From an uncultured Bacillota bacterium (GTDB taxonomy: Bacteria; Bacillota; Clostridia; Acetivibrionales; DTU013): 64,000 bases of DNA. The notes beneath the pieces are model-generated. The model searched no databases. It was not told the origin of the DNA and saw nothing but the letters and a program-made list of their open reading frames with translations. Position numbers and translations under genes: made by a program. The stretch covers positions 1,103,566-1,167,565 of the forward strand of contig OW818679.1 in the NCBI GenBank assembly GCA_942493145.1, given 5' to 3'. Below, piece after piece: positions 31,046-48,701 of this stretch (position 1 is the first letter of the stretch; every line of letters starts with the position of its first letter).

Positions 31046-31948
31046 GTGAATTTTAAACAGATAAACCTGCTTCAGATCAACTATTTTCTTGAGTTGGCAA
31101 AACACCTGAATTTTACAGAGGCAGCAAAGAGCCTGTATGTTTCACAGCCATCACTGAGCAAGCAGATAGCACTTTTTGAGAAGGAAATCGGAATACAGCT
31201 TTTTTTCAGGACAAAACGTTCCGTCCGCCTTACTCCTGCTGGTACCGTACTTCTCAAAGAATTGAGCGGGATAACCGCACATATTGAAAATGCTATAAAC
31301 AAATCAAAACAACCTAATCTTGGAGAAAACAGCACACTAACCATAGGCTTTCTGGAAGCGATGGATACAGGAACTTTTCTGCCCCGGCTTATTAAAGAGT
31401 TTACAGAGAAGTATCCTGGGGTCGATCTCAGCTTTGAAAGACACTCCTTCAAAGTGCTAAGAGAGAAGCTCATAACCGGGTCGCTGGATGTAATCTTTAC
31501 GATGTCTTTTGAAATTGACGATTCCATGGGGGTTCTTTCAGACATAGTTTATAAAACCAATTCGAGTATTGTCTTGTCATCATCCCATCCCAAGGCTGGA
31601 CTGGAGAAGCTATCCGTCGCTGATCTTGCTGACGAGGATTTCATATTCATATCAAGGGATGAGTCGCCAAGGGGGTTCGATTCCGAAGTGGGTCTATGTA
31701 TGAGGTACGGATTTACACCTAAAATTGTCAAGCAGGTACCAAATATTGAATCCATTCTGCTTTGTGTGGAATCGGGGCTTGGGGTGGCGCTTTTCGACTC
31801 AAGCGTGCGTTTATACAATAAGGACGCATTTAAATTATTTCAGGTTGATGATGATTTTATAGGCATTGCAATGGCATGGAAAAAGGAGAATCTTAATCCT
31901 GCTATCCCTCTTTTCTCAAACAGCATCCTTCAAAAAGTCGAAGAATAA
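31046..31948 (+). CDS. LysR family transcriptional regulator
   Basis: N-terminal wHTH INYFLELAKHLNFTEAAKSLYVSQPSLSKQIALFEKEIGIQLFFRTKRSVRLTPAG followed by a LysR substrate-binding domain. GTG start. Confidence 0.9.
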   Translation: MNFKQINLLQINYFLELAKHLNFTEAAKSLYVSQPSLSKQIALFEKEIGIQLFFRTKRSVRLTPAGTVLLKELSGITAHIENAINKSKQPNLGENSTLTIGFLEAMDTGTFLPRLIKEFTEKYPGVDLSFERHSFKVLREKLITGSLDVIFTMSFEIDDSMGVLSDIVYKTNSSIVLSSSHPKAGLEKLSVADLADEDFIFISRDESPRGFDSEVGLCMRYGFTPKIVKQVPNIESILLCVESGLGVALFDSSVRLYNKDAFKLFQVDDDFIGIAMAWKKENLNPAIPLFSNSILQKVEE

Positions 31949-32039: not shown

Positions 32040-33761
32040 CTATATTCGCACTTTGTACTTGGTATGAAGAAGCTTGTGCGACTTTTCTCCCAGTGGTTTT
32101 ATAAGGAAATCAGTGTATAGCTGTGTTATAGCGGGGTTTTCGTGGGACTTGCGGATCGGCATGTCGCTGTCCACTTGGTAAAGGGAGGATATACGCTTCT
32201 TCCTTACCTCATTGTTTGTCTGGTAGGGTTGGCCACCTCCACCGATGCAGCCTCCGGGGCAGCACATGACTTCTATGAAGGTTTTATCTGAAGTGCCGGA
32301 TTTGATGCTTTCCATGATCTTTTTAGCATTAGCCAGTCCATGGGCTACTGCCACATTGACCTGGGTACCGGCAAGATCCACCGAAGCTTCCTTAACGCCT
32401 TCCATCCCGCGAATATCTTCGAATTCCAGCTTCTCGAGTGTCTTTCCCGTTACAACCTCGTAAACGGTACGCAATGCGGCCTCCATAACACCTCCGGTTG
32501 CTCCGAATATGGCTGCTGCGCCGGTTGACATTCCCAGAGGGGCGTCAAATTCTTCATCAGGAAGTTCATTGAACTCTATTCCGTCGTGCTTCAGCATTCT
32601 TCCCAGTTCCCTGGTAGTAAGCACAACATCAACATCCCTGTATCCGCTGGAAGTCATCTCTTCACGTGCGGCCTCGAATTTTTTTGCCGTACAAGGCATT
32701 ATGGATACAACAAACACATTTTCAGGAGAGATTCCGCTTGTCTGCGGATAATAGGTCTTAGCCAAAGCCCCGAACATCTGCTGAGGGGATTTGCACGAGG
32801 ATACATGGGGGAGCAATTCGGGGTAGTAGTGTTCTATATACTTTATCCAACCCGGGCTGCAGGAGGTTATCATAGGAAGTACGCCACCGTTCTGTAGCCT
32901 GTGGAGTAACTCATTGCCTTCTTCTATTATTGTAAGATCTGCAGCGAAATCGGTATCGAAAACCTGGTTGAATCCCAAAGCGCGAAGTGCCGAAACAAGC
33001 TTGGCAGTGGATATCTCTCCGGAGGGAAGACCAAACTCTTCTGCTATGGAAACCCTTACTGAGGGCGCAACCTGTACGACCACATGCTTGTCAGGATTCT
33101 CCAGTGCTTCCCAAACAAGGCTGGTGTCATCCTTTTCGTGAATTGCTCCTGTGGGACAGACCAGTGCACATTGCCCACAAAGTACACATGCCACTTCTGA
33201 AAGCTTTTTACCATATTCGGGGGTCACACAGATATCCGTACTCCTGTTGTGGGAGTATAATATACCGACCTCCTGGGTATGATGGCAGGCTTCTGCACAG
33301 CGGCCGCACTTGATGCACTTGTTGGGGTTGCGTACCAGTGATGTTGTAGAGAGATCAAGAGGCTGGAAATTCTGCTGTTTTTCACCGTGGATGTCCCTTA
33401 CGTCGAATTTGGCTGCTATTCTTCTTAGCTCGCAATCACCGTTACGTATGCAGGTCAGGCATTCCTGGGGATGATCTGCGAAGATCAGTTCCAGTATGGT
33501 CCTGACGGTTTCCTTAACTTTCTGGGAATTTGTCCTTATTTTCATGCCTTCTGTGACGGGCGTGGAGCATGACGCCACAAGGTTTTTCATTCCTTCAACC
33601 TCTACGACACATACACGGCAATTAGCTTTAACCCTCTGGTCGGGGTGGTTGCATAATGTAGGTATATATCTCCCTTGACGTTTGGCAGCCTCAAGGATTG
33701 TTATTCCGGATTCTACGGCAACTTCTCTGCCGTTGAGTGTTATATTTACAGTTTCCATCAT
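32040..33761 (-). CDS. hydA: [FeFe]-hydrogenase catalytic subunit (group A, HydA of trimeric complex 1)
   Basis: N-terminal 2Fe-2S, His-ligated 4Fe-4S (HPQECLTCIRNGDCELR) and two ferredoxin clusters. H-domain motifs ITSCSPGW, MPCTAKKFE, EVMCCPGGCIGGGGQP. ATGA overlap with hydB. Confidence 0.92.
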   Translation of the reverse strand: MMETVNITLNGREVAVESGITILEAAKRQGRYIPTLCNHPDQRVKANCRVCVVEVEGMKNLVASCSTPVTEGMKIRTNSQKVKETVRTILELIFADHPQECLTCIRNGDCELRRIAAKFDVRDIHGEKQQNFQPLDLSTTSLVRNPNKCIKCGRCAEACHHTQEVGILYSHNRSTDICVTPEYGKKLSEVACVLCGQCALVCPTGAIHEKDDTSLVWEALENPDKHVVVQVAPSVRVSIAEEFGLPSGEISTAKLVSALRALGFNQVFDTDFAADLTIIEEGNELLHRLQNGGVLPMITSCSPGWIKYIEHYYPELLPHVSSCKSPQQMFGALAKTYYPQTSGISPENVFVVSIMPCTAKKFEAAREEMTSSGYRDVDVVLTTRELGRMLKHDGIEFNELPDEEFDAPLGMSTGAAAIFGATGGVMEAALRTVYEVVTGKTLEKLEFEDIRGMEGVKEASVDLAGTQVNVAVAHGLANAKKIMESIKSGTSDKTFIEVMCCPGGCIGGGGQPYQTNNEVRKKRISSLYQVDSDMPIRKSHENPAITQLYTDFLIKPLGEKSHKLLHTKYKVRI

Positions 33762-35044
33762 GCAGTTTCCTCCTGAGATATTTCAGTATTGTTTTCCTTA
33801 CAGTAAAGCAGGTATTCATCACGATAGTACGAAAGCGATGAAATCAGGCTGTTACCGGCTGCCTGGCCTAATCCACAGAAGGATGCATTCTGCATCGCCT
33901 TGGTGTATCGTTCAAGATTATTGACGTCAATAACCGAGGCCTCTCCTGATAGCAGCTTGCCAAGTATGACATTGGCCTGTCGTAATCCTTCTCTGCAGGG
34001 CGTACATTTGCCACAGCTTTCATGAAGGAAGAATTTTATCCTGTTATGCACATTTGAAAGGATGGAGCGGGTATCATCCAGTACGAATATGGCGCCGGAA
34101 CCAATTGTAATACCGGCCCGGTTGCATGCGCCATATTCGAGTGGTGTATCAAGCATCTCAGGGGGTACTAAAACGCCGGATGCGCCGCCTATATTAACGG
34201 CTTTTATTTTGCGGCCGTTGGCTATACCGCCACCGTATTTCTCTATGATCTGGTTGAAGGTCATACCGAATGGCACTTCGCACAGACCTCTTTTGACTAC
34301 ATCTCCAGAAAGAGAAATAAGCTTTGTACCATGGCTGTCTGCTGTTCCGATAGAGCGGTACCATTCTGCGCCATTTTGTATAATTTTCGGTATGATAGTG
34401 AGTGTTTCAACGTTGTTTATGAGTGTCGGTTTATCCCAAAGGCCAGACTGGGTGGGATAAGGGGGCTTGACGCGCGGACGTCCCTTTTTGCCCTCAATTG
34501 AGGATATCAACGCAGTCTCTTCGCCGCACAAATAGCTGCCTGCACCTGAGAAAAGTTCAAGTTTAAAGCTGAAATCACTGCCCAGTATGGAATTTCCCAG
34601 CAAGCCGGCACTTTCTGCCGCTTTTATGCTGGCTTTAAGTATCCTTTGTGCTTCAGGATATTCATGTCTTACGTAGATGAACCCTCTTGATGCACCAGCC
34701 AGATAAGCTGCAATGGTAATGCCCTCAATCAGCTGAAAAGGCATGTTCGTCATTATGAACCTGTCTTTGAAGGTGCCCGGTTCACCTTCATCTGCATTGC
34801 AGATTACGAATCTCTGTTCTTCTGAGTTTGAGCGCACCATTTCAATCTTCTTAGCGGTTGGGAAAGCTGCTCCACCCCTGCCGCGAAGTTCTGCATCAGA
34901 TATGATCTTTACAGAATCGACAGCATCAGTTTCAAGAACCTTCTTTAGTGAAGAATAACCACCATGCTGTCTGTAGTGCTCAATACCTCTGTTTTCACAT
35001 TTGGATATGTTAAATACCAGCTTATCATCATGCAGTCTGTTCAT
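33758..35044 (-). CDS. hydB: NuoF-like flavoprotein subunit of hydrogenase 1 (short HydB: core only)
   Basis: GRGGAAFPT, CNADEGEPGTFKDR, GAGSYLCGEETALISSIEG, ESCGKCTPCREG. Lacks the N-terminal 2Fe-2S and C-terminal 2x[4Fe-4S] domains seen in 49635..51431. Start at MNRLHDD, with GGGAGGA 8 nt upstream. Confidence 0.88.
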   Translation of the reverse strand: MNRLHDDKLVFNISKCENRGIEHYRQHGGYSSLKKVLETDAVDSVKIISDAELRGRGGAAFPTAKKIEMVRSNSEEQRFVICNADEGEPGTFKDRFIMTNMPFQLIEGITIAAYLAGASRGFIYVRHEYPEAQRILKASIKAAESAGLLGNSILGSDFSFKLELFSGAGSYLCGEETALISSIEGKKGRPRVKPPYPTQSGLWDKPTLINNVETLTIIPKIIQNGAEWYRSIGTADSHGTKLISLSGDVVKRGLCEVPFGMTFNQIIEKYGGGIANGRKIKAVNIGGASGVLVPPEMLDTPLEYGACNRAGITIGSGAIFVLDDTRSILSNVHNRIKFFLHESCGKCTPCREGLRQANVILGKLLSGEASVIDVNNLERYTKAMQNASFCGLGQAAGNSLISSLSYYRDEYLLYCKENNTEISQEETA

Positions 35045-35513
35045 TACGGTGATCCTCCCTGAGCTCATTTATTATGGAAGATACATCCCCGGCGGTCAGG
35101 TATCCGTGTATTGTATCGTCGACCTTGATTGCGGGGGACATGTAACAGGCGCCGAGGCAATTAACACTTTCCAGTGTAAACAGTCCGTCAGCTGTAGTCT
35201 GTCCGATCGTTATGCCAAGCTCTTCTTCCAAAGCTTTCTGCACTTCGGCCTTACCGGCATTTTCACAAGGAGCATTGACGCATACCCTGATCAGATGTAT
35301 GCCCCTGGGCTCGAGTGATATTTCACTATAGTAGGAGGCTGTTGAATAGACTCTGCTGCGGGAGATGTTCATAACGTATGCAATTGCGTTTATATCTTCT
35401 TCACTCACATACCTCCTGGGATTATTGTCCTGAACATCCAACAGTACCTGCAAAAGTGGAACTTCATTTTTGTCGTATTGTGCAACTATATCCCGTATGG
35501 CTTTGGTTTTCAT
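35028..35513 (-). CDS. hydC: NuoE-like [2Fe-2S] subunit of hydrogenase 1 (HydC)
   Basis: Thioredoxin-like 2Fe-2S pattern C.NAPC....(31)...CLGAC, and first position in the operon. Confidence 0.88.
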   Translation of the reverse strand: MKTKAIRDIVAQYDKNEVPLLQVLLDVQDNNPRRYVSEEDINAIAYVMNISRSRVYSTASYYSEISLEPRGIHLIRVCVNAPCENAGKAEVQKALEEELGITIGQTTADGLFTLESVNCLGACYMSPAIKVDDTIHGYLTAGDVSSIINELREDHRNEQTA

Positions 35514-35904
35514 AAATGACCTCCTAGTTAAAATTGCTTCCAGGAAAATTCCTGGCTATTAATTATTAAATGAAGTATAAATTGCCTTTTATTGCAAGTC
35601 AAGAAAAGTTATTGAAATGACGAACAGTGTTGCAATCATCGCCAATATGCCGTCAAAGATGACGAATATCGTTAATTTGGGCAATTAATTCGTTTGTATA
35701 ATAACAAACTTTGATATAATTATTAACACACTCTGTTTTCAAAATTGCAGGAAGAACAGGCTCAATATTCATATTCTCATTTATAACGATATGGAATAAG
35801 TCTAATACATTATGTATATTTCACCTCTGAACGAATAATTGATACAATATGGTCGTGGACAAATTATTGCAATAAAACAATTATATTAGCATGGAGTTGA
35901 TTAT

Positions 35905-38019
35905 TTGAAAAAGATCAATCTGATAATAGACGACCAGAATGTTGAAACAATTGAGGGCAAATCATTGCTGGAGGCGGCGCTGGAGGCTGGTATCTATGTA
36001 CCCCACATATGCTCCCATGATGATCTTAATCCATCCGGCGCATGCCGGTTATGCGTCGTTGAGGTCGAAGGCAGAGAAGGAATCTCTGCCTCCTGTATGA
36101 CACAAGCAGAGACTGGCATGAATGTAAGGACCCGCACGCCACGTCTCAAAAAAATGCGCAGGCTGGCATTGGAATTGATGCTGACATCACATCCTTCAGA
36201 ATGCACCTCCTGCCCCAAATACCTTCAATGCGAGCTTCAGAACATGTTCCAGTATCTTGAGGTCACCGACGCCAGAATAAGGAAGCGCGCAGATCCTACA
36301 CCCCGGAATACTTCAAATCCACTGGTCCTGCACGACATGGGCCGCTGCATCCTGTGTGGAAGGTGTGTTCGTGCCTGTAACGAGCTTAGAGGGGTAGGAG
36401 CTATCACATTTGTAAAGAAGAACGGCATTGCGAAGGTAGGCGTAAAGGGAGGGACAACCCTTGCCGAGGCCGGATGCAAGTTCTGCGGGGCTTGTATTGA
36501 GGTATGCCCGACAGGTTCCATACTGGACCAGGAAGGCCTCATAAAGCCAGGTACATCACGGAAAGCAGCACTTGTGCCCTGCCGTGAAACGTGCCCGGCA
36601 GGAATTGATATACCACGTTATATCAGGTTCATACGTGAAGGCGATTATCCGGCCGCGGCGGCTGTTGTGAGGGAAAAGGCGCCATTACCGTCCATACTTG
36701 GACATATATGCAACCATCTTTGCGAACTTGAATGCCGCAGGGGTCAGATAAATGAAGCGGTTTCGATAAAACAGCTTAAGCGTTTTGCTGCAGCTCAGGA
36801 TGACGGCAGTTGGAAAAAGAACCTTGTGGAGCCTGCAAAAACAGGAAAAAGAGCGGCTGTAATCGGATCGGGTCCTGCCGGGCTTACGGCTGCATATTAT
36901 ATGGCACGGCTGGGACATGATGTGAATGTATTTGAAGAACAAGCCCACGCTGGTGGGATGATGAGGTATGGTATTCCTAAATACAGGCTCCCATGGGACG
37001 TACTTGACAAGGAAATCGGAGAGATAGTTGAAGCCGGTGTAGATATTAAGACGGGAATTAAGATAGCATCTGCCGGACTACTGCTCAATCAAGGTTACGA
37101 CGTCGTACTGGCAGCACCTGGTACACATCAGGGAGTGAAGCTGCCTTTGCCGGGCTCCGATCTGGAGGGTGTCCTTATAAATACAGATTTTCTTAGAAAG
37201 GCAAGCCAGGGAGAAAAGGTGGAAGTAGGAGACAGAGTTGTGGTGCTAGGCGGGGGCAGTGTCGCCTTCGACTGTGCAGGAACAGCCCGCCGTCTCGGAG
37301 CACGTGAAGTACATGTAGCATGCCTTGAAGCAAGGGAAGACATGAAGGCAAGTGCCGAAGAAATCCTTGAAGCCCTTGAAGAGGGGATTGTGGTACACCC
37401 GTCTCTCTCGTTTATTGAGATAAAAGGTGATAACGGCAAGGTTGCAGGAGTGCTCTGCAGCAAGGTCTGTACCTTCCATTTTGATGAAAGCGGCCGAGCC
37501 GTAGTGGAATGTGAAGATGATTCAGAGCATTTGCTTCCTGCTGATACAGTGATCTTTGCAGTTGGTCAGCGTCCTGACATTGATGCGGATTTTGGTCTTC
37601 CTCTGGCAAGAGGGAACAGGATAGAGGCATCCAGAGAAGATCTTTCCACTACGGTCACAGGTATTTTTGCAGCAGGAGATGCTGTCACTGGAACGTTATC
37701 CGTCATTGAAGCCATAGCAGCCGGAAGGAAAGCTGCTGTATCAATGGATAAATATCTCGGAGGCACGGGTGAGATTGACGAAAAGCTGGCACCGGTCACA
37801 GAACCTGAAAAATGGTTGGGCAGGGATGAAGGCTTTGCAGGGTCCGAGAGACGCAAAAGCACCTGCATTCCAGTTGATACAAGGATCGCCGGATTCGAGC
37901 GGGTAAATGATGGGTTCGACTGTGCAAATGCTGCCGGTGAAGCTGGACGGTGTCTGCAATGTGACCTCAGACTGGGGATAAAACGTCAGAAATTCTGGAG
38001 CGAGTATGCCAGCCGGTGA
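35905..38019 (+). CDS. Fusion of a NuoG/HydA-N-terminal Fe-S module with a GltD/NfnB-like NAD(P)H:FAD oxidoreductase
   Basis: 2Fe-2S (CSHDD..C..C), HPSECTSCPKYLQCELQ, CILCGRCVRAC, CKFCGACIEVCP. Then the GltD-type region CRETCPAGIDIPRYI..., AVIGSGPAGLTAAYY, VVVLGGGSVAFDCA, IFAAGDAV. TTG start 8 nt after GGAG. Confidence 0.85.
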   Translation: MKKINLIIDDQNVETIEGKSLLEAALEAGIYVPHICSHDDLNPSGACRLCVVEVEGREGISASCMTQAETGMNVRTRTPRLKKMRRLALELMLTSHPSECTSCPKYLQCELQNMFQYLEVTDARIRKRADPTPRNTSNPLVLHDMGRCILCGRCVRACNELRGVGAITFVKKNGIAKVGVKGGTTLAEAGCKFCGACIEVCPTGSILDQEGLIKPGTSRKAALVPCRETCPAGIDIPRYIRFIREGDYPAAAAVVREKAPLPSILGHICNHLCELECRRGQINEAVSIKQLKRFAAAQDDGSWKKNLVEPAKTGKRAAVIGSGPAGLTAAYYMARLGHDVNVFEEQAHAGGMMRYGIPKYRLPWDVLDKEIGEIVEAGVDIKTGIKIASAGLLLNQGYDVVLAAPGTHQGVKLPLPGSDLEGVLINTDFLRKASQGEKVEVGDRVVVLGGGSVAFDCAGTARRLGAREVHVACLEAREDMKASAEEILEALEEGIVVHPSLSFIEIKGDNGKVAGVLCSKVCTFHFDESGRAVVECEDDSEHLLPADTVIFAVGQRPDIDADFGLPLARGNRIEASREDLSTTVTGIFAAGDAVTGTLSVIEAIAAGRKAAVSMDKYLGGTGEIDEKLAPVTEPEKWLGRDEGFAGSERRKSTCIPVDTRIAGFERVNDGFDCANAAGEAGRCLQCDLRLGIKRQKFWSEYASR

Positions 38020-38046
38020 GTGGAAGAAACTGAAAGGAGTCTGTGA

Positions 38047-39603
38047 ATGTCACTCGAAATATTGAAGTCAAACTATGAAAGTATACTACTTCGTAATATT
38101 GGGAAGATAGCTAATGATGGAATAAAAGGCTACATTTCATCTGGAGGATATTCTGCTCTGAAGATGGTGCTTTCAATGACACCGGATGCGGTGTTGCCAA
38201 TCATCAGAGAAGCCGGACTCAGGAAAAGATCGGGAGAGGGAGCATTTATAGCCCCATTGATGACGAAGTGTCTTGAACAGACAGGTGCAGGCAAGTATTT
38301 TATATGTAACGGCACAGATGGCGATCCGGTATGTGAAATATCGGCATTCCTGCTGGAGAATGATCCCCATTCCGTATTGGAAGGAATCATTATCAGCGCA
38401 TATGCTACCGGGGCTGAGAAGGGGATATTATGCATAAACCCGGGAAAGGCTGTGGATATTGTTGAAAATGCACTAAAAGAGGCTGTTGCCGGAGGATTTA
38501 CCGGTGAAGGAATCCTTGGTACATCATACAGCTTTGAGTTGGAATTGAGGATCGTTGATAAAGCTTATATAAATAGTGAGGAATCGGCACTTCTGAATGG
38601 TCTGGAGGGTAAGACGCTCACGTCTGGAAGGACAAATCATATTACAGAAACAGGACAACCATTTCCGGGGTTGTTTGCATATGAGGGAAGTCCTGCTGTA
38701 GTCGTGGATGCCGAGGCTCTGGCGAACATACCGGTTATAATCCAAAGAGGAGCCGGTTGGTATAAAGGCATCGGCACTGAGAATTGTACAGGAACGAAGC
38801 TTTTCTGCATCAACGGAAGTGCTGCTTCCTGCGGGCTGGTCGAAGTGCCTTTTGGAACTACAATCAGAAGCATTATATATGATGTCTGTGGCGGAATTAA
38901 AGAAGGAAGCGAAATCAAAGCCTTGCTGGTTGGAGGCCCAATGGGAGGGTTTTTTACACCCGAAGGCCTCGATGTCATGCTGGATTTTGATCATCTTAAA
39001 GAAGCAGGTGCTGTTACAGGTACCGGTAGTATCGTTATATATGACACCGGCAGTTGCATAGTGAATACGGTGAAGGAGTGTATGTCCTTTTCCAGAATGG
39101 AATCCTGCGGCAAATGTGTTTTCTGCCGTGAAGGAACGTTCCAGCTACAGGAAATCCTCTCGGACATAACATCAGGAAAAAGCAGGACAAATGACCTTGA
39201 GATGCTGGCGGATCTATGTGAGGGAATGGCCGAAGGCTCGTTCTGCGCACAGGGAAAGGCTGCTCCAAACCCAGTAATTACATCACTCAAGCTATTCGGT
39301 GAGGAATATGAAGCGCATATGAAGCGCCGGAGATGTACTGCTATGGTTTGCAAGAAATATATCACCTATCATGTATTGCCGGATAAATGCACCGGTTGCG
39401 GGGATTGCATGGAGAAATGCCCGGAGGAGGCCATTGAAGGCGATGACGGCATGATACATGTCATTGACGCCGATTCCTGCACAAAATGCGGTCTGTGCCT
39501 CGAAATATGCAGCTCAGGTGCCAACGCCATAGTAAAAGCCGGACCTGTGAAGCCAATGACACCAAAGGAGCCTGTCAAAGTCGGCTCCTGGCGCAAGCGC
39601 TAA
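38047..39603 (+). CDS. NuoF-like protein with degenerate FMN/NADH motifs and a C-terminal 2x[4Fe-4S] ferredoxin domain
   Basis: The fold is collinear with NuoF/HydB. GRGGAGFPTG is replaced by RSGEGAFIAP, CNADEGEPG by CNGTDGDPV, and GAGAYICGEETAL by VDKAYINSEESAL. ESCGKCVFCREG and CTGCGDCMEKCP/CTKCGLCLEIC are retained. Confidence 0.8.
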   Translation: MSLEILKSNYESILLRNIGKIANDGIKGYISSGGYSALKMVLSMTPDAVLPIIREAGLRKRSGEGAFIAPLMTKCLEQTGAGKYFICNGTDGDPVCEISAFLLENDPHSVLEGIIISAYATGAEKGILCINPGKAVDIVENALKEAVAGGFTGEGILGTSYSFELELRIVDKAYINSEESALLNGLEGKTLTSGRTNHITETGQPFPGLFAYEGSPAVVVDAEALANIPVIIQRGAGWYKGIGTENCTGTKLFCINGSAASCGLVEVPFGTTIRSIIYDVCGGIKEGSEIKALLVGGPMGGFFTPEGLDVMLDFDHLKEAGAVTGTGSIVIYDTGSCIVNTVKECMSFSRMESCGKCVFCREGTFQLQEILSDITSGKSRTNDLEMLADLCEGMAEGSFCAQGKAAPNPVITSLKLFGEEYEAHMKRRRCTAMVCKKYITYHVLPDKCTGCGDCMEKCPEEAIEGDDGMIHVIDADSCTKCGLCLEICSSGANAIVKAGPVKPMTPKEPVKVGSWRKR

Positions 39604-39684
39604 AAGGTTCGCAGAGGAAGGAAGAATAAAAAACAATTAAAAATTTGAAAAAATAAAAACAAAATGATACGAGGAGGTTTTTTG

Positions 39685-41178
39685 ATGAAGAAGATGAACG
39701 CGGATGTAATTGTCGTAGCAGCAGGCCTGTCAGGTCTTGCAGCAGCCATTACCGCAGCTGAGAAAGGTGCCACTGTTATTGCATTTGAAAAGATGGGTAC
39801 TACAGGAGGAGCTGCAAACATGGGCATGGGCCCGCTCGGAGTAGGATCACGTTTCCAGAGGCGACGTTTCATAAGCATCACCCCAGGCGAAGCTTTCAGA
39901 AAGCATATGAACTTCACACACTTTCGCGGTGATCCAAGATTGGTCAGGGACTATTATTTCAAATCGGGTGAAACCATTGACTGGCTGGAGGACATGGGTG
40001 TAAACTTCCTTACCGTAACGAAGCTTTATCCGGTGCCGGAGGTCATGCGCCCATATGCTACCTCCGAGGAGACCTGGCATGTTGTCAGGCCGGCTGACGG
40101 AAGCGAGAACTTCGGTCCCAGGATGGCTGCGCCCATGATGAAGGCAATGACTGAAAAAGCAATTGACCTGGGTGTAGACATCCAACTCAACACGCCTGTC
40201 AAAAAGATCATTGTTGAAAATGGGCAGGTTGTTGGTGTCATTGCAGAAAGCAAGGACGGAGAAACAATTGAAGCAAGAGCAACAGGCGGAGTAATTCTGG
40301 CAACAGGCGGAGCCGGTGACAATCCTGAAATGATCAAGCAACTGACAGGTTACGAATGGGGCAAGGATCTTTACTCCTTCAGGATACCGGGAATGGATGG
40401 CGAAGGACTCAAGATGGCATGGGAAGCCGGGGCTCAAAAGACCAATGTGACAATGGAACTTATGTATACTGTTCCTTATAACCTGGCGAACCACAACAAT
40501 TTCCTGATTGACGGAGCCTTCCGTAATCCCTGCCTCTGGGTCAATGCCCTGGGTGAAAGGTTTATGAGTGAAGAATGTATCGGAAACAACACATTTGTCG
40601 GCAATGCCATAACCGAGCAGCCTAAGCGCTACATCTATTCCATATTCGACGCAAACCTTCTGAAACACTACAAGAAACACGGAGCAGACCTGGAATCATA
40701 TGTGCATCCTGTCGACATGTTCGATCATATAGAAGAAGCGATTGACGGTGCAATCAAAGACGGTTACCAGCATGTATTCGTTGCAGATACTATCGAAGAG
40801 CTGGCTCAGAAGCTTGAGATCAGTCCTGAAGTCCTTCAGAATACAGTCGATGAATACAACGGCATGTGCGACAAAGGCTTTGATGAACTTTTTGAAAAAG
40901 ACCACAGATTCCTGCAGCCTATCAAAAAGGGCAAATTCTATGCAGCCAGGTTTTACTCGGGAGCATACGGTACCCTTGGCGGAGTCAAGATCAATCACAA
41001 GACGGAAGTAATGAATGACAATTTTGAAGTTATTCCCGGATTATATGCAGTAGGACTTGAATCCTGCACGATTTATGGTGACAGCTATCCTTTCATACTT
41101 CCCGGAAATACCATGGGCTACTGCCTCAATTCAGGCCGTATTGGCGGGGAAAACGCTGCAAATCGTTCAGTTGAGTAA
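39685..41178 (+). CDS. FAD-dependent oxidoreductase of the fumarate-reductase/flavocytochrome-c flavoprotein family (FAD_binding_2)
   Basis: DVIVVAAGLSGLAAAITAAEKGATVIAFEK..TTGG at the N-terminus and GLYAVG...GNTMGYCLNSGRIGGENAA at the C-terminus. Start at MKKMNADV, with GAGGAGG 7 nt upstream. Confidence 0.8.
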   Translation: MKKMNADVIVVAAGLSGLAAAITAAEKGATVIAFEKMGTTGGAANMGMGPLGVGSRFQRRRFISITPGEAFRKHMNFTHFRGDPRLVRDYYFKSGETIDWLEDMGVNFLTVTKLYPVPEVMRPYATSEETWHVVRPADGSENFGPRMAAPMMKAMTEKAIDLGVDIQLNTPVKKIIVENGQVVGVIAESKDGETIEARATGGVILATGGAGDNPEMIKQLTGYEWGKDLYSFRIPGMDGEGLKMAWEAGAQKTNVTMELMYTVPYNLANHNNFLIDGAFRNPCLWVNALGERFMSEECIGNNTFVGNAITEQPKRYIYSIFDANLLKHYKKHGADLESYVHPVDMFDHIEEAIDGAIKDGYQHVFVADTIEELAQKLEISPEVLQNTVDEYNGMCDKGFDELFEKDHRFLQPIKKGKFYAARFYSGAYGTLGGVKINHKTEVMNDNFEVIPGLYAVGLESCTIYGDSYPFILPGNTMGYCLNSGRIGGENAANRSVE

Positions 41179-41282
41179 ATTGAGCAAGAAAAGAAATAGG
41201 GTAATGCAGCGATTAAATCAGGTAATACGGTGAATAAAAAGAAGCCGGATAATGGATGCCGGATGACGGAAGGACGATGAAT

Positions 41283-42104
41283 ATGAGCGAATTGATAAGG
41301 GGATTGACGCCCGAGGAGGCGAAGCTGCCTTATGCCAAATATTACTACAGGCCAATAGCACCACCGAATCCAAAACTGATTGAGATACTGAAACAGGGGC
41401 CTATGGATCCTGCGAAGGCACTGAAGCCCGAAAACATAAACGACTTGCTGAATCCAGGTTATCATGAAGTAGAGACCGGCTATTGCATTATGCCGGATGG
41501 AACAGGATATGCGGCTATCAACAACGTGTTCCCCGGATCTACCGTTGAAATGCACAACTGGTGGTTTGCCTGGCATGCGCTTGAAGACATCAGATACATG
41601 CTCTGGTTCAATAAGGGGCATTTTGGCATCCGTATCAGCGATGCCGACAGGGCGAAGATACTTGACCCCGATGTACCAATGGTAAAGAAGTACCAGGGTA
41701 TGCAGCATCATGTAGTAGAAGATGTGGGTGGTGGAGTGGAGGACATAGAAATCAATTTCCTGACACCGGAGGAAATGGGCTTTGATATGGAACGGTTCAA
41801 AGCCCCGGCTGTCGCAACTATAGTCGGAGCCAACGGATTTTCCCAGGCAAGGGCTGGAGGCCCAAAAGCCCCTGCAATAATGCTGCATTTCGCCCGTGAG
41901 ATTCCCGGCGGTATCGAATTCCGCACACGCTTCTGGATGGGCTGGCATATGATCAACGGAAAGCCGGTCAAACTGCTTCCGGACGGAATCAGGATACCAA
42001 TTCAGGCACCCATGGGCCTGGCCTTCCATAATGTGGAGGAGTACAGCAACCTGGCAGCATTTCTCCCTGAAATCTACAAGGAGATGCAGGGCAAGGTGTC
42101 GTAA
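41283..42104 (+). CDS. DAPG/phloretin hydrolase family (PhlG-like) C-C bond hydrolase
   Basis: Recognised from the family-like pattern ..YYRPIAPPNP.., VETGYCIMPDGTGY, WWFAWHALEDIRYMLW, and the C-terminal HNVEE (HxxxE). Recalled, not searched. Start is 41283 (GGAAGGA 8 nt upstream) or 41256. Confidence 0.6.
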   Translation: MSELIRGLTPEEAKLPYAKYYYRPIAPPNPKLIEILKQGPMDPAKALKPENINDLLNPGYHEVETGYCIMPDGTGYAAINNVFPGSTVEMHNWWFAWHALEDIRYMLWFNKGHFGIRISDADRAKILDPDVPMVKKYQGMQHHVVEDVGGGVEDIEINFLTPEEMGFDMERFKAPAVATIVGANGFSQARAGGPKAPAIMLHFAREIPGGIEFRTRFWMGWHMINGKPVKLLPDGIRIPIQAPMGLAFHNVEEYSNLAAFLPEIYKEMQGKVS

Positions 42105-42117: not shown

Positions 42118-42209
42118 GGCTCTACGTCAACAGTTGGGGTGGGGTACAAGTAAAAAAATATAGATGTATTTTCGGTGGATGATTTTATTGATCATCCACC
42201 GTTTATTTT
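42118..42209 (+). repeat. Solo ISL3 end: terminal inverted repeat plus subterminal terminator hairpin, with no IS body
   Basis: GGCTCTACGTCAACAGTTGGGGTGGGGTACAAGTAAAA matches 29236-29273 with 2 mismatches over the first 38 nt. It is followed by CGGTGGATGAT / ATCATCCACCG and TTTATTTT. No transposase or second IR follows. Confidence 0.8.
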
Positions 42210-42489
42210 GTGATTGTTATTTTATACAGTGTCATGAGGTCGGCGTTGTTCATTTTCAACAACTTTTATTGATGTATTTCTTTTTAAAACTCGTCAAGGT
42301 ATAATTAATAAATAAGTGAACTATATACCCTTGAATTAATGAAATTTAGCCACATTTACTATCTGATATATATGAAATGATATAAATGAAAGTTATTAAT
42401 CATTAACACTGTTGTTTAAACTGGGCTGCAGACCTTTCGGTTTATATAGAAACGGAAGCCAGGCAGAAAAAATCAATAGGAGGGTATTT

Positions 42490-44169
42490 ATGAAAAATGT
42501 TAAACGGTTACTGGCAGTGGTTCTGGTACTGATGTTTGCATTCACAATGTTTACTGGATGCGGAGCCAAGCCTGAAGAACAGGCAGCAACTACCCAGGCA
42601 GCAGAGTCAACAGCTCCTGCTGAATCAACAGCAGAGGCACCTGCCAGCACGGCGGCAGCTGAACCGGGGAAAGCTGAACTACCGCTTACCAAAGACAAGG
42701 TCACTTTCTCAATCTGGCTTGGCTTCAATCCCCAGGTAGCAGCATTCCAGAAAACTATGGCTGATAATGCCGCTATACAGGAATTGGAAAAGCTGACCAA
42801 TGTCCATCTCGAATGGCAGGAAGTCCATCCATCGCAGCAGGTTGAGAAATGGAACCTGGCCATTGCCTCCGATGAATATCCTGATCTGGTCATTGCACTG
42901 GGCAACCTCTACCAGGGCGGCTATGACAAGGCAATTTCCGATGGCGTCGCAGTTAAGCTGAACGACTATATCGACAAATACGCTCCCAATTTGAAGGCAC
43001 TCATGGCAACAAACCCGCAAGCCGTGAAGTCAATGGTAACCGACACTGGTAATATCGGTGCGTTCCCGGCATTCATGGTCAATATGCAGGGCGAAGATTA
43101 CGGCGCCGTTGTTAGAAAAGACTGGCTCGATGCCGATGGTCTGAAAGCTCCCGTTACCTATGATGATTATTACAATATGCTCAAGGCGTTCAAGGAAAAG
43201 AACGGCGCAACCGGAGCCTTCCTCATGGGCGCAGGGATTGCACCCCAATTCGGTTGTCTGGCAGGCGGATATGGAATCAATGCCGCAAATCAGACCGATC
43301 CCTTCCTTGCGACCTCCTTCTTCCAGGTGGACGGCAAGGTCAAGTTCGGTCTTGCTGAACCCGGCTACAAGGAGTTCGTCGGCATGCTGGCCAAGTGGTA
43401 TTCAGAAGGCCTCATCTACAAGGATTACATGAAGAACAACTTCCCGTGGCCTGACGAACAAGCCGTTTTGACGAACAAAAGCGGATTGTTCTACATGGAC
43501 CAGGGCTTACTTACATCCTATGAGAAAAAGTCAACAACTCCCGGCTTCAAGCTGACAGCTGTACAGGATGCGGTTAAACAGGCAGGAGATGTGGTGCATC
43601 TGGGCAGGGATACCTCTCCTATAGCAGGCGGAGGAATCAGTGTAACCAGCAAATGCAAAAATGTGGAACTGGCTACGAAATATATCGATTTCATGTATAC
43701 TGAACAGGGCGCCATGCTCTGCAATTATGGCGTGGAAGGTGTGTCGTACAACATGGTTGACGGCAAACCCAAATATACCGAGGTCATAACCAACAATCCG
43801 GATGGTATCAATCCAAGGCTGGCCATATACAAGTTTGCTCTCGAACAGGGCGCCTTCAAGAGCGATGCCGGCAGATACCTGCAGGTCTATCCGCAGGTCG
43901 ATGCAGATGCAGCCAAGATCTGGTCCACCAACAAGGATGGTGCTTACGCATTGCCTATGAGCTTGTCCATGACACCCGAGGAAGCTTCTGATTATTCCAA
44001 AACCATCATTGATATCAATACCTTTGCAACTGAGAATGTAAATCAGTTCATTACAGGCAAAAAGCCGATGGCCGAATATGATGCATTCCTCGAGCAGATG
44101 AAGTCAATGGGCCTTGACAAGACTATTACCATCCAGCAGGCTGCTCTTGACAGGTATAACAAAAGATAA
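42490..44169 (+). CDS. Extracellular solute-binding lipoprotein (large ABC sugar-binding family 1 type)
   Basis: Signal plus lipobox MFTGCGA and a Thr/Ala/Glu-rich linker, about 560 aa overall. AGGAGGG precedes ATG 42490. No permease or ATPase genes are adjacent. Confidence 0.8.
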   Translation: MKNVKRLLAVVLVLMFAFTMFTGCGAKPEEQAATTQAAESTAPAESTAEAPASTAAAEPGKAELPLTKDKVTFSIWLGFNPQVAAFQKTMADNAAIQELEKLTNVHLEWQEVHPSQQVEKWNLAIASDEYPDLVIALGNLYQGGYDKAISDGVAVKLNDYIDKYAPNLKALMATNPQAVKSMVTDTGNIGAFPAFMVNMQGEDYGAVVRKDWLDADGLKAPVTYDDYYNMLKAFKEKNGATGAFLMGAGIAPQFGCLAGGYGINAANQTDPFLATSFFQVDGKVKFGLAEPGYKEFVGMLAKWYSEGLIYKDYMKNNFPWPDEQAVLTNKSGLFYMDQGLLTSYEKKSTTPGFKLTAVQDAVKQAGDVVHLGRDTSPIAGGGISVTSKCKNVELATKYIDFMYTEQGAMLCNYGVEGVSYNMVDGKPKYTEVITNNPDGINPRLAIYKFALEQGAFKSDAGRYLQVYPQVDADAAKIWSTNKDGAYALPMSLSMTPEEASDYSKTIIDINTFATENVNQFITGKKPMAEYDAFLEQMKSMGLDKTITIQQAALDRYNKR

Positions 44170-44271: not shown

Positions 44272-44306
44272 AGCCACATGGTATAATCATACCGTGTGGC
44301 TTTTTC
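44272..44306 (+). terminator. Terminator after the solute-binding protein gene
   Basis: AGCCACATGGTAT / ATACCGTGTGGCT followed by TTTTT. Confidence 0.75.
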
Positions 44307-44349
44307 CATAAAGCCGAGTGTAATATCAAGTATAGGGGGCGACGCCGGA

Positions 44350-44703
44350 ATGAAGATTGAAGAGATAATCCGAATATTGGACGCAGAACTCCTGACATCA
44401 ACAGATACAACTTTTATAGATATATTTTCCGCTTGTGGTGCCGATCTGATGAGCGACGTAATGGCTTATGTCAAGGAAAACGTTTTGCTGCTGACGGGGT
44501 TGGTCAACCCACAGGTGATACGTACGGCTGAAATGATGGATATTAAGGCTGTTATGTTTGTAAGAGGCAAGACCCCGGGACAGGACATCATCGATCTTGC
44601 GGAAGAAAAAGGCATAATCATTATGAAAACAAAGAATCCGCTGTTTATTTCGTGCGGCAAGCTATACAAATCAGGGCTGACGGGCAGGGGTGTATGGGAT
44701 TGA
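44350..44703 (+). CDS. DRTGG domain protein
   Basis: LLLTGLVNPQVIRTAEMMDIKAVMFVRGK pattern. Small single-domain protein, first gene of the regulatory cluster. Confidence 0.75.
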   Translation: MKIEEIIRILDAELLTSTDTTFIDIFSACGADLMSDVMAYVKENVLLLTGLVNPQVIRTAEMMDIKAVMFVRGKTPGQDIIDLAEEKGIIIMKTKNPLFISCGKLYKSGLTGRGVWD

Positions 44704-45128
44704 GCGAAGATTCAATGAAACTCCAATATGATATACCGGCTGATGATTTTTCTGCTGCAGGAGAGGCATCCAGCAGTGTGAAGAAAGTCCTTGTCAAGTT
44801 GGGTGTAAGCCCTGAAGTCGTCAAAAAAGCCGCCATAGCAATGTATGAAGCGGAGATAAATGCCGTGATTCATGCAAATGGAGGATTTGCAGATGTGGAG
44901 ATAGCCCGTGATAAAATAAAAATATGCATCAGCGACAATGGACCAGGCATTCCTGATGTTGAGCAGGCCATGAAGGAAGGCTGGTCTACAGCTTCTGACA
45001 AGGTGCGCCAGCTCGGGTTCGGTGCTGGAATGGGCTTACCCAACATAAAGAGATACGCAGACAAACTTGATATAGATACGATTGTTGGAAAAGGAACAGC
45101 AGTTACCATAACCGTAAACCTTATGTAA
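44694..45128 (+). CDS. Anti-sigma-factor-type serine kinase (GHKL/HATPase_c, SpoIIAB/RsbW-like)
   Basis: AMYEAEINAVIHA (N box), DNGPGIPD (G1), GFGAGMGLPN (G2). The start is 44694 or 44715. Confidence 0.75.
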   Translation: MGLSEDSMKLQYDIPADDFSAAGEASSSVKKVLVKLGVSPEVVKKAAIAMYEAEINAVIHANGGFADVEIARDKIKICISDNGPGIPDVEQAMKEGWSTASDKVRQLGFGAGMGLPNIKRYADKLDIDTIVGKGTAVTITVNLM

Positions 45129-45149
45129 TCAGGGGAGGTTCAAAAGGCA

Positions 45150-46454
45150 GTGGAGAGCTATTTTCATTCGGTGACCCTGGATGAGGAAAAATGCCGGGGT
45201 TGTACAAACTGTATTAAAAGATGTCCGACCGAAGCAATAAGGGTGCGTAAGGGCAAGGCCAGGATAATCAACGAAAGGTGTATCGATTGTGGTGAATGCA
45301 TCAGGACGTGTCCCTACCATGCCAAAAAAGCCATCACCGATCCCTTTGACCTGATATATCAGTACAAATACAGAGTGGCCATACCTGCGCCATCTCTTTA
45401 TGGCCAGTTCAAGTCCGAGTTTACCAGGAGGCAGCTGCTTGAATCTTTGCGTGTGCTTGGCTTCAATGATGTGTTTGAAGTGGCAAGGGCAGCGGAATAT
45501 GTCACTGATGCGACAAAACGGCTCATGCAGAGGGAGGGTATAAAAAAACCGCTCATATCTTCAGCATGTCCTGCTGTTGTAAGGCTTATACAGGTTAACT
45601 TCCCAAACCTCATAGATAATCTTGTTAAACTGGAATCCCCGATGGAGACGGCCGCGAAGCTTGTAAGAAGGCGTATTTCACTCAAAGGCGATGTGCCGGA
45701 CGGCGATGTCGGAGTGTTCTTCATAACGCCATGTGCCGCCAAAGCAACAAGTGTCAAGGCACCATATGAGAATATACAATCATCTGTTAGTGGCGTAATA
45801 TCAATAAAGGATATTTATATTAAGATGATATCTGCACTGAATGCCGCAGGTGAGACCGATAATGAATCTCTCGCAGGGTTTGAGGGTATAAGATGGGCGA
45901 ATTCCGGCGGCGAAAGCGTTGCGCTTGGGACTGACAAGTTCCTGGCTGTCGATGGAATAAACAATGTGAATGCCATTCTTGAGGCAGTTGAAAATGACCA
46001 GCTTGAGGATGTTGAGTTCATAGAAGCGCTGGCATGTCCAGGAGGATGTATCGGCGGCCCACTTACCGTTGAGAATGTATATGTTGCAAAGAACAGACTA
46101 AACAAGCATGTAAATGATGCCAAAAATGAAGGCGGGACGGATGAGCGCCAGGAGCATCCTGATGAAGACCTTGTTTGGACTTCAGAACTTGAACACAAGC
46201 CGGTTATGAAGCTGGATGATGATTTCTCAGTAGCGATGAAGAAGCTTGAGGAACTTGAGATTATAAACAACCAGCTGCCGGGGCTTGACTGCGGAGCCTG
46301 CGGGGCACCCAGTTGCCGCGCTCTCGCGGAAGACATCGTAAGGGGCAATGCAAATGAAACCGATTGTATATTCAAGCTGAGGGAAAAGGTCAGGGACCTG
46401 GCTTCACAGATGATGGAACTTGAAGCGAAGATCCCGCCGGTCATGGAAAAGTAG
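45150..46454 (+). CDS. Sensory-type [FeFe]-hydrogenase-like protein (HydS/HfsB-like, no PAS domain)
   Basis: Two N-terminal ferredoxin clusters. The H-domain has altered motifs SSACPAV (versus TSCCP), TPCAAKATS, and ACPGGCIGGPL. A C-terminal CGACGAPSCRALAE Fe-S domain is present. Confidence 0.8.
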   Translation: MESYFHSVTLDEEKCRGCTNCIKRCPTEAIRVRKGKARIINERCIDCGECIRTCPYHAKKAITDPFDLIYQYKYRVAIPAPSLYGQFKSEFTRRQLLESLRVLGFNDVFEVARAAEYVTDATKRLMQREGIKKPLISSACPAVVRLIQVNFPNLIDNLVKLESPMETAAKLVRRRISLKGDVPDGDVGVFFITPCAAKATSVKAPYENIQSSVSGVISIKDIYIKMISALNAAGETDNESLAGFEGIRWANSGGESVALGTDKFLAVDGINNVNAILEAVENDQLEDVEFIEALACPGGCIGGPLTVENVYVAKNRLNKHVNDAKNEGGTDERQEHPDEDLVWTSELEHKPVMKLDDDFSVAMKKLEELEIINNQLPGLDCGACGAPSCRALAEDIVRGNANETDCIFKLREKVRDLASQMMELEAKIPPVMEK

Positions 46455-46462
46455 TAACGAGT

Positions 46463-46810
46463 ATGAATAAAGTAGGAATGAGTATGAATATTAAAGAGTT
46501 GGCAGAAAAAATCAATGCGGTTATCCTGACAGGACAGGCTGAAAACGAGGTCACCGGAATATATGCATGTGATCTCCTCAGCAGGGTCATGGCAAAGGCA
46601 ACCAAAGGGAACGCCTGGATAACAGTCCACACCCACCTCAATGTCGTAGCGGTCGCTGTCTTTGCAGAGCTTTCCTGCGTAGTGATCCCCGAAGGAATAG
46701 AGGTGGAAGAGGCTACGCTGAAAAGGGCGATAAATGAAGGCATTCCTATACTGACGACACAACTCCCGGCTTATGAAATCTGTGGGAGGTATTATGCAGT
46801 ACGCGGTTGA
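46463..46810 (+). CDS. DRTGG domain protein (second copy)
   Basis: ..ACDLLSRVMAKATKGNAWITVHTHLNVVAVAVFAELSCVVIPEG... The start may be 46463, 46478 or 46484. Confidence 0.7.
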   Translation: MNKVGMSMNIKELAEKINAVILTGQAENEVTGIYACDLLSRVMAKATKGNAWITVHTHLNVVAVAVFAELSCVVIPEGIEVEEATLKRAINEGIPILTTQLPAYEICGRYYAVRG

Positions 46811-47501: not shown

Positions 47502-47541
47502 TGGGTAAACTCTAATAAAATGAATTTTGAAAGGAGAAACC

Positions 47542-47931
47542 ATGGAAGGAAACAAAAATGAATTCAAGTCAATTGAGGAATATATTTTGCAGTTTTCTCC
47601 CGGGATACAGGAAAAGCTTCAAACACTAAGAAGCATTATAAAAGAGTCGGCGCCGGATGCAGAAGAAAAGATAAGCTGGCAGATGCCGACGTTTTATTAT
47701 TATGGAAATGTGGTGCATTTTGCAGCACATAAAAATCATATTGGGTTTTATCCTGGTGCCAGTGGTATTGAAGTTTTCAAGCATAAGATGCTGGAGTATA
47801 AAGCTTCAAAAGGTGCCGTGCAATTTCCTTTTGAAAAGCCGTTGCCAAATGAGCTGATAAGCGAGATAGTAAAATATAGAGTTGCTGAAAATAAAAAATG
47901 GGCAGAAGAGAAATCTCCAAAGAAAAAATAA
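47542..47931 (+). CDS. DUF1801 (YdhG-like) domain protein
   Basis: SIEEYI..F....Q..L..LR..I....P.AEE.ISW.MPTF...GN.VHFAAHKNHIGFYP. AAAGGAG precedes the ATG. Confidence 0.75.
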   Translation: MEGNKNEFKSIEEYILQFSPGIQEKLQTLRSIIKESAPDAEEKISWQMPTFYYYGNVVHFAAHKNHIGFYPGASGIEVFKHKMLEYKASKGAVQFPFEKPLPNELISEIVKYRVAENKKWAEEKSPKKK

Positions 47932-48040
47932 TAGCAACCTTTGTATACAATAAACTGCATTTCAAGTCAAAAGTACTTAATTGTAGCATAAAACAAATTT
48001 CTGGAAAAACAAAATTTCACAAAAAAATAAAAAATGGGCA

Positions 48041-48069: not shown

Positions 48070-48080
48070 ATTAACGTACG

Positions 48081-48692: not shown

Positions 48693-48701
48693 GAAACCAA
48701 T

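Follow-up and report, generated by a model that had tools for sequence, protein, structure and literature searches.

Within a stretch of 64,000 nucleotides from an uncultured Bacillota bacterium (contig OW818679.1, positions 1,103,566 to 1,167,565; the window in the following), four co-directional open reading frames (ORFs) were found on the + strand at positions 35905-42104. They are designated g1 to g4 in this order, and genes for phloretin hydrolases of the PhlG-like g4 type are called phy. Comparison with related loci leads us to propose that g1, g2 and g3 encode an NAD(P)H:flavanone/chalcone reductase complex, which would feed the phloretin hydrolase g4. Such a complex would be an analogue of the OYE-class enzyme Fcr but not its homologue, and we put the chances that this assignment is correct at about even. 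An initial annotation of the window had suggested that a reductase for a chalcone-type enone precedes the hydrolase. This idea is supported by orthologous modules that lie within flavonoid/phloroglucinol clusters and appear there in the slot of an Fcr-like enzyme.

The search for related loci used an alignment of g3 homologues and one genome for each GTDB species. There were 525 relatives, of which the best 80 loci (59-71% identity) were analysed. A further set of 82 metagenomic loci was added, giving 162 related loci in all (denoted by L numbers). In 71 of the 80 genome loci, g3 has a full-length g1 homologue (44-59% identity) as its neighbour; of the nine remaining loci, six end at a contig edge within 1.3 kb. 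A g2-like iron-sulfur (Fe-S) protein is present in 69 loci. A homologue of the flavone reductase FLR, an FMN_red-domain protein of about 314 amino acids (aa; PDB 7D38, E 5e-28), is present in 65 and usually lies directly upstream of g3. PucR-type regulators (46 loci), PhlG-like genes (17) and genes of the phloroglucinol pathway (about 15; phloroglucinol reductase (PGR), cyclohydrolase, BKACE lyase, HOHDH, thiolase, CoA transferase) are less frequent.

The commonest order across the g3 loci is FLR, g3, g1, g2. The order of the window (g1, g2, g3) also occurs in loci of Anaerovoracaceae, Holophaga foetida and Actinomycetota, and among the metagenomic loci we found g1-g2-g3-phy in L101 and L117, LysR-g1-g2-g3-...-phy in L084 and g3-phy in L083. 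The initial annotation had made its reading dependent on co-occurrence of all four genes in other genomes. This stood for the adjacent pair g3 and g1 and for the complete order, which recurs in L084, L101 and L117, but phy is attached in only about one fifth of the loci. The conserved unit is thus g3-g1-g2, usually plus an FLR homologue; the window is without FLR, and so, as regards an adjacent gene, are its closest relatives L084, L101, L117, L003, L023 and L025. Among the carriers are many Lachnospiraceae from gut and rumen (Butyrivibrio, Enterocloster, and Dorea-like and Eubacterium-like metagenome-assembled genomes, MAGs), Lacrimispora, psychrophilic and soil Clostridium, Tissierella, Proteocatella, Flavonifractor-like and Oscillospiraceae MAGs, and also Fusobacteriaceae, Holophagaceae and Thermoleophilia.

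The strongest argument for the proposed function is an exchange of reductase genes between otherwise similar clusters. L035, from a Clostridium MAG, and the metagenomic contig L085 have in common (82-98% aa identity) a sig54 regulator, Cupin, PGR, the cyclohydrolase (DPGC), MFS, one further gene and phy. The interval between phy and flr is filled by a single gene for a 669-aa Fe-S flavoenzyme of the OYE/BaiCD class in L085, and by g3, g1 and g2 in L035. A second swap is seen when phy-g3-g1-g2 in C. frigoriphilum (L045) is compared to phy-OYE in Caloramator (L001, L089), where the common genes are 67-82% identical. The OYE gene of these clusters is the positional counterpart of Fcr in the FLR-Fcr-Phy gene trio of C. 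butyricum, an organism in which chalcone isomerase (CHI) is reported to be dispensable for flavanone cleavage (PMC11868195). This argues that g3-g1-g2 does the Fcr step by non-homologous means.

The surroundings of the module point in the same direction. It is found beside or inside clusters with phloroglucinol reductase, dihydrophloroglucinol cyclohydrolase, BKACE lyase and HOHDH, and beside PhlG-like genes and FLR homologues; these enzymes form the characterised route from flavonoids to phloroglucinol (PMC10470551, PMC7862272). The nearest named orthologue of g4, from Caloramator sp. E03 (74% identity), directly follows a LysR gene. Its cluster also encodes a CoA transferase, Cupin, SDR, cyclase, thiolase, BKACE, an OYE-class Fe-S flavoenzyme, 3HCDH and PGR, and the families of the Caloramator phy cluster correspond to the enzymes that were characterised for phloroglucinol degradation in C. 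scatologenes (PMC10470551). Just 5' of phloroglucinol reductase, many of the clusters share a conserved Cupin_2 protein of about 112 aa (L001:4608-4946; homologues in L024, L035, L045 and L085; 55-96% identity), of which the consulted parts of the C. scatologenes paper make no mention.

All domain and family calls of the initial annotation for the four proteins were upheld by comparisons with Pfam, NCBIfam and PDB, with Pfam scores far above chance level. For g4, the DAPG_hydrolase domain (PF18089) scores 259.2 bits (cut-off 22.7) and covers positions 5-223 of the 223-position model. The best PDB match is the phloretin hydrolase of M. abscessus (5xe5, 8e-41), followed by PhlG (3hwp, 4e-32). 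The zinc ligands of PhlG, which we take to be numbered H129, E160, H270 and E274 (presumably after He et al. 2010; literature confirmation was attempted without success), align with H122, E155, H258 and E262 of g4 (H/E/H/E in 3hwp_A, with a constant offset of +8), and the four positions are invariant in 17 homologues. Membership in the PhlG family and retention of the metal ligands, on which the earlier proposal had been staked, are thus both observed. In the DAPG-specific PhlG equivalog model NF047887, g4 reaches only 121.5 bits (cut-off 600). Being so far below this cut-off, it is not a DAPG-specific PhlG; it is probably a member of the phloretin-hydrolase-type family and closer to the phloretin hydrolases such as 5xe5.

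The g3 protein matches FAD_binding_2 with 202.5 bits, has the N-terminal dinucleotide-binding motif and opens directly with this FAD motif, without a signal peptide. Its best NCBIfam match, over the full length, is the vinyl phenol reductase VprA (NF053717), whose equivalog cut-off of 600 is missed by a wide margin (342.5 bits); by sequence comparison, g3 represents a sister family to VprA. In sequence and predicted fold (pLDDT 72), its nearest relatives are flavocytochrome c3 (Fcc3) and urocanate reductase, together with ketosteroid dehydrogenases and cyclohexanone dehydrogenase. Fcc3 and UrdA are the top Foldseek matches (E about 1e-30), and the ketosteroid and cyclohexanone dehydrogenases among the structural neighbours are enone-forming enzymes. 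Placement in the soluble fumarate-reductase-like flavoenzyme family was therefore well founded. When g3 is aligned with Fcc3, the equivalents of R402 and R381 are kept; g3 thus retains the catalytic arginine, which is invariant, and it also has a full substrate domain. The ligands of the fumarate carboxylates, which we take to be H365, H504 and R545 in Fcc3 numbering, are replaced by V, G and I, respectively. Because of these replacements, a function as fumarate reductase was rejected.

The g1 protein had been described as a fusion of a NuoG-type N-terminus with a GltD-type module, and this architecture was recovered in full. Its Pfam domains are Fer2_4 (71 bits), NADH-G_4Fe-4S_3 (45), Fer4_Nqo3 (38), Fer4_20 (66) and Pyr_redox_2 (106), and its NCBIfam matches are PRK12771/PRK12814. 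The NuoG/HydA-type part would hold a [2Fe-2S] cluster, a His-ligated [4Fe-4S] cluster and two further [4Fe-4S] clusters; the GltD/NfnA-type part would hold two [4Fe-4S] clusters, for which the Cys set including the C-terminal CxxC is kept, FAD and an NAD(P)H site. Seven family members were compared, and none deviates in a cluster ligand or in either dinucleotide motif. A PDB search placed the GltD part far nearer to NfnA/StnC-type chains (9bov_A; 9n5u_A, NfnA, 3e-112; 8oh5_C, 2e-110; range 1e-110 to 1e-125) than to NfnL or GltD itself. With NuoG-type clusters and a GltD-type FAD/NADPH module, g1 has the components of a BfuA-type subunit in a different domain order. Some phy loci contain a second flavoprotein (FAD_binding_2 + Succ_DH_flav_C, 564-577 aa) directly 5' of phy (L084:6558-8527, accompanied by an 86-aa ferredoxin; L116:570-2303; L125:1532-3256 and 4909-6639), and in L125 the g1 protein is paired with a genuine NuoF-like protein (Complex1_51K, 138 bits). 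Due to this pairing and the additional flavoproteins, the g1 module seems to combine with several different partners.

The label "degenerate NuoF-like" given to g2 is accurate, since all five FMN/NAD elements listed for NfnB of T. sibiricus (PMC12018979) are altered: the glycine loop RGRGGAGF reads RKRSGEGAF, D195 is T, AFM is CEI, AGAFVCGEET is DKAYINSEES, and GGPSG is GGPMG. An intact BfuB FMN/NAD site is thus missing. Complex1_51K scores merely 69.5 bits, compared to 152.5 for the neighbouring HydB, next to NADH_4Fe-4S (95 bits) and a C-terminal 2x[4Fe-4S] domain. The best PDB matches (E about 1e-112 to 1e-116) are the BfuB/HydB-type chains 9bov_B, 7p5h_B (HydB) and 9n5u_B (NfnB), whose N-terminal [2Fe-2S] domain g2 lacks. 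It keeps the N3-type [4Fe-4S] cluster, the C-terminal 2x[4Fe-4S] ferredoxin domain and a conserved Pro/Lys-rich tail. Its relatives come in three sizes, i.e. 466-541 aa with a weak flavin domain, about 362-369 aa, and 191 aa, the latter consisting of the NADH_4Fe-4S domain and the 2x[4Fe-4S] domain alone. The flavin domain is deleted in most homologues and is therefore dispensable, which makes g2 an Fe-S wire; the ferredoxin-type clusters are retained down to the 191-aa size class.

Gly takes the place of the third Cys in the N3 motif CxxCxxC of most g2 homologues (CGRCVFGHEG and similar; homologues examined: L005:8524-9921, L024:13641-14726, L035:13667-14767, L058:13613-14185). The Cys is kept in the window and in Holophaga. 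Due to this replacement, the N3 cluster of the Gly-bearing proteins may have a non-Cys ligand or a different nuclearity.

From these features we infer how the system might operate. The products of g1, g2 and g3 would form a soluble cytoplasmic iron-sulfur flavoprotein complex that reduces a flavonoid-derived enone with NAD(P)H. Most likely, it would yield a dihydrochalcone such as phloretin, either by opening the C-ring of a flavanone reductively or by reducing the chalcone tautomer. Electrons would pass from NAD(P)H to the FAD of the GltD-type module of g1, then via its two GltD [4Fe-4S] and its NuoG-type clusters (six clusters in g1), and onward via the N3-type and ferredoxin-type clusters of g2 (three clusters). 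The FAD of g3 would finally give a hydride to the substrate, with the equivalent of Fcc3 R402 as the proton donor. The Zn-dependent g4 would then cleave the C-C bond of the acyl-phloroglucinol, releasing phloroglucinol and a phenylpropionate, which in the case of phloretin would be 3-(4-hydroxyphenyl)propionate.

Several points weigh against this assignment. Its support is wholly comparative. Nine Fe-S clusters would be employed for a reaction that Fcr performs alone, and the "Fcr-like" OYE genes used for comparison are themselves uncharacterised. In a phy-centred metagenome scan with 57 loci having usable flanks, the module was present in seven and an Fcr-like gene in eight, and no locus had both; this exclusivity is not significant, and because about one overlap would be expected by chance it was given no weight. 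Four g3 loci (L020, L029, L057, L064) contain the module together with a more distant OYE-type reductase (33-39% identical to the reference), so that the two may differ in substrate or stereochemistry and may not be equivalents. Finally, the pathway is incomplete locally, since no FLR (tblastn with three homologues), phloroglucinol reductase, cyclohydrolase or lyase was detected in the 64-kb window.

A related reading starts from the origin of g1 and g2. They could be the decayed core of an Nfn-Bfu enzyme which now serves as a common electron input for flavonoid reductases (g3, and FLR in most genomes), possibly with the strongly exergonic enone reduction coupled to the reduction of ferredoxin; as a whole we regard this as conceivable but rather improbable. 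The canonical Bfu bifurcation site, composed of FMN, cluster B1 and the NuoE-type cluster C1, cannot exist here, since a BfuC gene is lacking and the pocket for FMN has decayed. The FAD module of g1 is of the type that bifurcates in NfnSL. Together with the conserved ferredoxin-type clusters of g2, this module type may allow coupling to ferredoxin.

It is unlikely, in our estimate, that g1 and g2, with or without g3, are primarily the electron-delivery chain of FLR, in which case g3 would be a mediator or a second head and the main job would be the reduction of the flavone C2=C3 bond. FLR stands directly beside g3-g1-g2 in the great majority of genome loci, and it cannot use NAD(P)H; its electron donor was given as unknown in 2021 and still in a review of August 2026. 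The sizes of g2 follow its presence: short g2 (<260 aa) has a close FLR in 31 of 37 loci, while four of five loci with long g2 (at least 420 aa) have none, nor has the window (counts from L003-L082, uncorrected for kinship). This pattern would be compatible with the FMN of FLR docking at the former FMN position of NuoF. However, the window and its six closest relatives have the module without an adjacent FLR, the retained catalytic arginine and substrate domain of g3 do not fit a mere mediator, and in the swapped clusters it is the OYE reductase, not FLR, whose place the module takes. All the data also fit a system with two heads, which feeds FLR as well as g3.

The flavanone/chalcone assignment can further be set against a broader one, in which g3 reduces another activated C=C bond of plant phenolics (hydroxycinnamates, vinylphenols, stilbenes, auronols or prenylated acylphloroglucinols) and g4 acts on another acyl-phloroglucinol. 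VprA as the best curated match of g3 would agree with this, as would the many Lachnospiraceae FLR-g3-g1-g2 loci without phy or phloroglucinol genes within 10 kb and the Holophaga and Actinomycetota loci without a nearby flavonoid gene. However, the VprA score remains well under its cut-off, FLR, phy and the phloroglucinol pathway recur nearby instead of phenolic-acid decarboxylases or CoA ligases, and the positional swap involves an Fcr-like gene. We therefore consider a substrate of this kind unlikely.

That g1 and g2 are a Sporomusa-type Nfn (Stn/Nfn-Bfu) transhydrogenase or a HydABC partner, with g3 and g4 adjacent by coincidence, is hardly credible: their best PDB matches are indeed NfnA/StnC-type and NfnB/HydB-type chains and upstream there is a divergent HydABC cluster whose HydC is NuoE-like, but the operon has no NuoE/BfuC gene, the FMN/NAD pocket of g2 is changed throughout and its domain mostly deleted in homologues, g1/g2 follow g3 in about 70 of the 80 loci from several phyla, and the module has no HydA or HydC match beside it in the 80 genome and 82 metagenomic loci, a NuoF/HydB-type gene in L125 being all that was found.

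The positions of the four genes are those given in the initial annotation (Table 1). They are separated by gaps of 27, 81 and 77 nt, the second of which shrinks to 60 nt if the ORF start of g3 is used. The start of g3 is very likely the ATG at 39685, which has GAGGAGG 7 nt upstream and agrees with a 497-aa database copy. No NuoE-like protein is encoded in the operon according to an ORF and Pfam survey of the window, as had been noted earlier; the two NuoE genes of the window (35028-35513, - strand, and 48201-48692) are both part of hydrogenase clusters. Rfam gave no match at gathering score anywhere in the window.

Table 1. The proposed flavonoid reductase operon and its flanking elements (window coordinates)
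Feature	Position	Strand	Remarks
LysR-family regulator, candidate operon regulator	31046..31948	+	HTH_1 + LysR_substrate (Pfam)
AT-rich divergent intergenic region, hydC (-) / g1 (+); presumed operon promoter region	35514..35904		several sigma-70-like matches on both strands
g1, predicted electron-input subunit	35905..38019	+	704 aa; TTG start, GGAG 8 nt upstream
g2, BfuB/HydB/NuoF-derived Fe-S subunit	38047..39603	+	518 aa
g3, FAD_binding_2 flavoenzyme, presumed catalytic C=C/enone reductase	39685..41178	+	first ATG of the ORF at 39664
g4, DAPG_hydrolase-family C-C hydrolase, probable phloretin (dihydrochalcone) hydrolase	41256..42104	+	282 aa
Intrinsic-terminator-like hairpin closing the operon	42173..42210	+	12-bp stem (6 GC pairs), 5-nt loop, T-rich tail; hairpin with T-run at 42173-42201; 69 nt past the g4 stop

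The LysR gene 4 kb upstream probably controls the operon, judging from its relatives. Its product shares 63% identity with the Caloramator LysR, whose gene directly precedes phy, and 61% with the LysR upstream of phy-g3-g1-g2 in L035; in L084, g1 is directly preceded by a LysR gene (59% identity to a reference LysR). A conserved LysR operator was not found when 35514-35904 was compared with the regions upstream of g1 in L084, L117, L005 and L023, which gave only AT-rich chance matches.

In the window alone, LysR and g1 are separated by HydABC genes on the opposite strand. The initial annotation had considered that the neighbouring hydrogenase might feed electrons into the operon. This was not supported: a search of the 162 related loci with HydA, HydB and HydC among the references gave no HydA or HydC match beside the module, the sole NuoF/HydB-type gene adjoining g1 being that of L125. 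The neighbouring hydrogenase is best read as an insertion specific to the window. Because the adjacency is specific to the window and LysR stands directly upstream of g1 in L084, a functional link between HydABC and the operon was rejected as a general feature. An ISL3-family transposase gene (29588-30763, - strand) lies directly upstream of the LysR gene, which, together with the HydABC genes wedged between LysR and g1, suggests local rearrangement.

The window contains two HydABC-type [FeFe] hydrogenase clusters (32040-35513, - strand, and 44296-53259, + strand). In the first, HydB is short (436 aa), lacks the N-terminal [2Fe-2S] and C-terminal ferredoxin domains, and reads TFK for AFM and GGASG for GGPSG, a non-bifurcating signature. 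HydB is complete in the second cluster (598 aa, AFM and GGPSG), which also has HydA and NuoE and is preceded by DRTGG, HATPase, HydS-like sensory hydrogenase (45150-46454) and PHP genes. A 585-aa ORF at 42412-44169 (+ strand) has no Pfam match and no counterpart in the 162 related loci; its product only weakly resembles a carbohydrate ABC substrate-binding protein (E 4e-5). As it is located past the terminator of the operon and missing from all related loci, it was rejected as an operon member. Two c-di-GMP signalling proteins are also encoded, one with PAS-GGDEF-hemerythrin (53440-54891, + strand) and one with PAS-GGDEF and an HD-GYP-like phosphodiesterase domain (61134-63311, - strand). The host belongs to the Clostridia and forms spores; the window has Ger genes as well as genes for UvrA/B and aspartate kinase. 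Among named UvrB relatives, the nearest come from MAGs labelled "Clostridiales bacterium" (89% identity) and "Ruminiclostridium sp." (84%).

In its inferred pathway position, just before Phy, the module corresponds to the Fcr (EnoR) + Phy system of Eubacterium ramulus/Flavonifractor plautii and to FLR-Fcr-Phy of Clostridium butyricum. Both have phy, flr, LysR and phloroglucinol genes as neighbours and occupy the same slot in syntenic clusters. However, Fcr is a single NADH-dependent polypeptide of the OYE class (PMC11868195, PMC13515148), whereas the module consists of an FAD_binding_2 protein that would be wired to two multi-cluster Fe-S subunits; the Oxidored_FMN (OYE) and Pyr_redox_2 fusion is absent, as no OYE domain was found by Pfam in g1, g2 or g3.

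The likeness of g1 and g2 to StnC and StnB without a NuoE partner, pointed out in the initial annotation, is confirmed by the PDB matches, apart from the domain order of g1. NfnA/StnC and NfnB/StnB of the Nfn-Bfu/StnABC enzymes (Thermococcus sibiricus NfnABC, Sporomusa ovata StnABC) are the closest relatives of the GltD module of g1 and of most of g2, which keeps the B1-type and the B3/B4 ferredoxin-type clusters of NfnB. In contrast to these enzymes, the operon has no BfuC (nor is there a HydC-like gene beside g1/g2 in the 80 genome loci) and g2 no N-terminal [2Fe-2S] domain; with AFM absent, GGPSG changed to GGPMG and D195 to T, the FMN-B1-C1 "flavobicluster" site cannot form. In g1 a full NuoG-type N-terminus is followed by GltD, while in Nfn-Bfu the GltD part is inserted after the [2Fe-2S] domain, and an FAD_binding_2 partner has been added to g1/g2. 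This partner, g3, has the fold, the FAD site and the R402 and R381 equivalents of Fcc3, urocanate reductase UrdA and VprA, but unlike Fcc3 not the three carboxylate ligands, and its electrons would come from Fe-S subunits instead of haem, FMN_bind domains or direct NADH. The g4 protein shares the DAPG_hydrolase domain and the four Zn ligands with PhlG and the phloretin hydrolases of M. abscessus/E. ramulus, and differs from PhlG by its low equivalog score and its closeness to 5xe5.

All component families and the chemistry are already known. A full-text literature search found no description of this gene combination, in agreement with the earlier impression, and recent reviews and genome studies of flavonoid degraders name only FLR, CHI, Fcr/EnoR and Phy. 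What appears to be undescribed is an FAD_binding_2 enzyme of the fumarate-reductase family driven by a decayed Nfn-Bfu-type Fe-S module, and also the placement of such a system in the flavonoid pathway.

Anaerobic flavonoid breakdown shapes which polyphenol metabolites the host receives, and in anoxic soils it mobilises phenolic carbon. The accepted route leads through FLR, Fcr and Phy into the phloroglucinol pathway and has two acknowledged gaps: the electron donor of FLR is unknown according to the August 2026 review, and the Fcr candidates of several degraders are only 32-36% identical to characterised Fcr or to each other (PMC11868195). The g3-g1-g2(-FLR) gene set is a concrete candidate for one or both of these gaps and a marker set for predicting flavonoid degradation from metagenomes. 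If g1/g2 are a common input, they would supply the missing physiological electron donor of FLR. Caffeate reduction conserves energy in acetogens; flavonoid reduction would do so if it is coupled to ferredoxin via the g2 clusters or the NfnL-like FAD of g1. If the proposed assignment is true, g3 would be the first flavoenzyme of the fumarate-reductase family to be powered by an Fe-S module derived from Bfu/Nfn, and the system would show how a bifurcating core decays and is re-wired.

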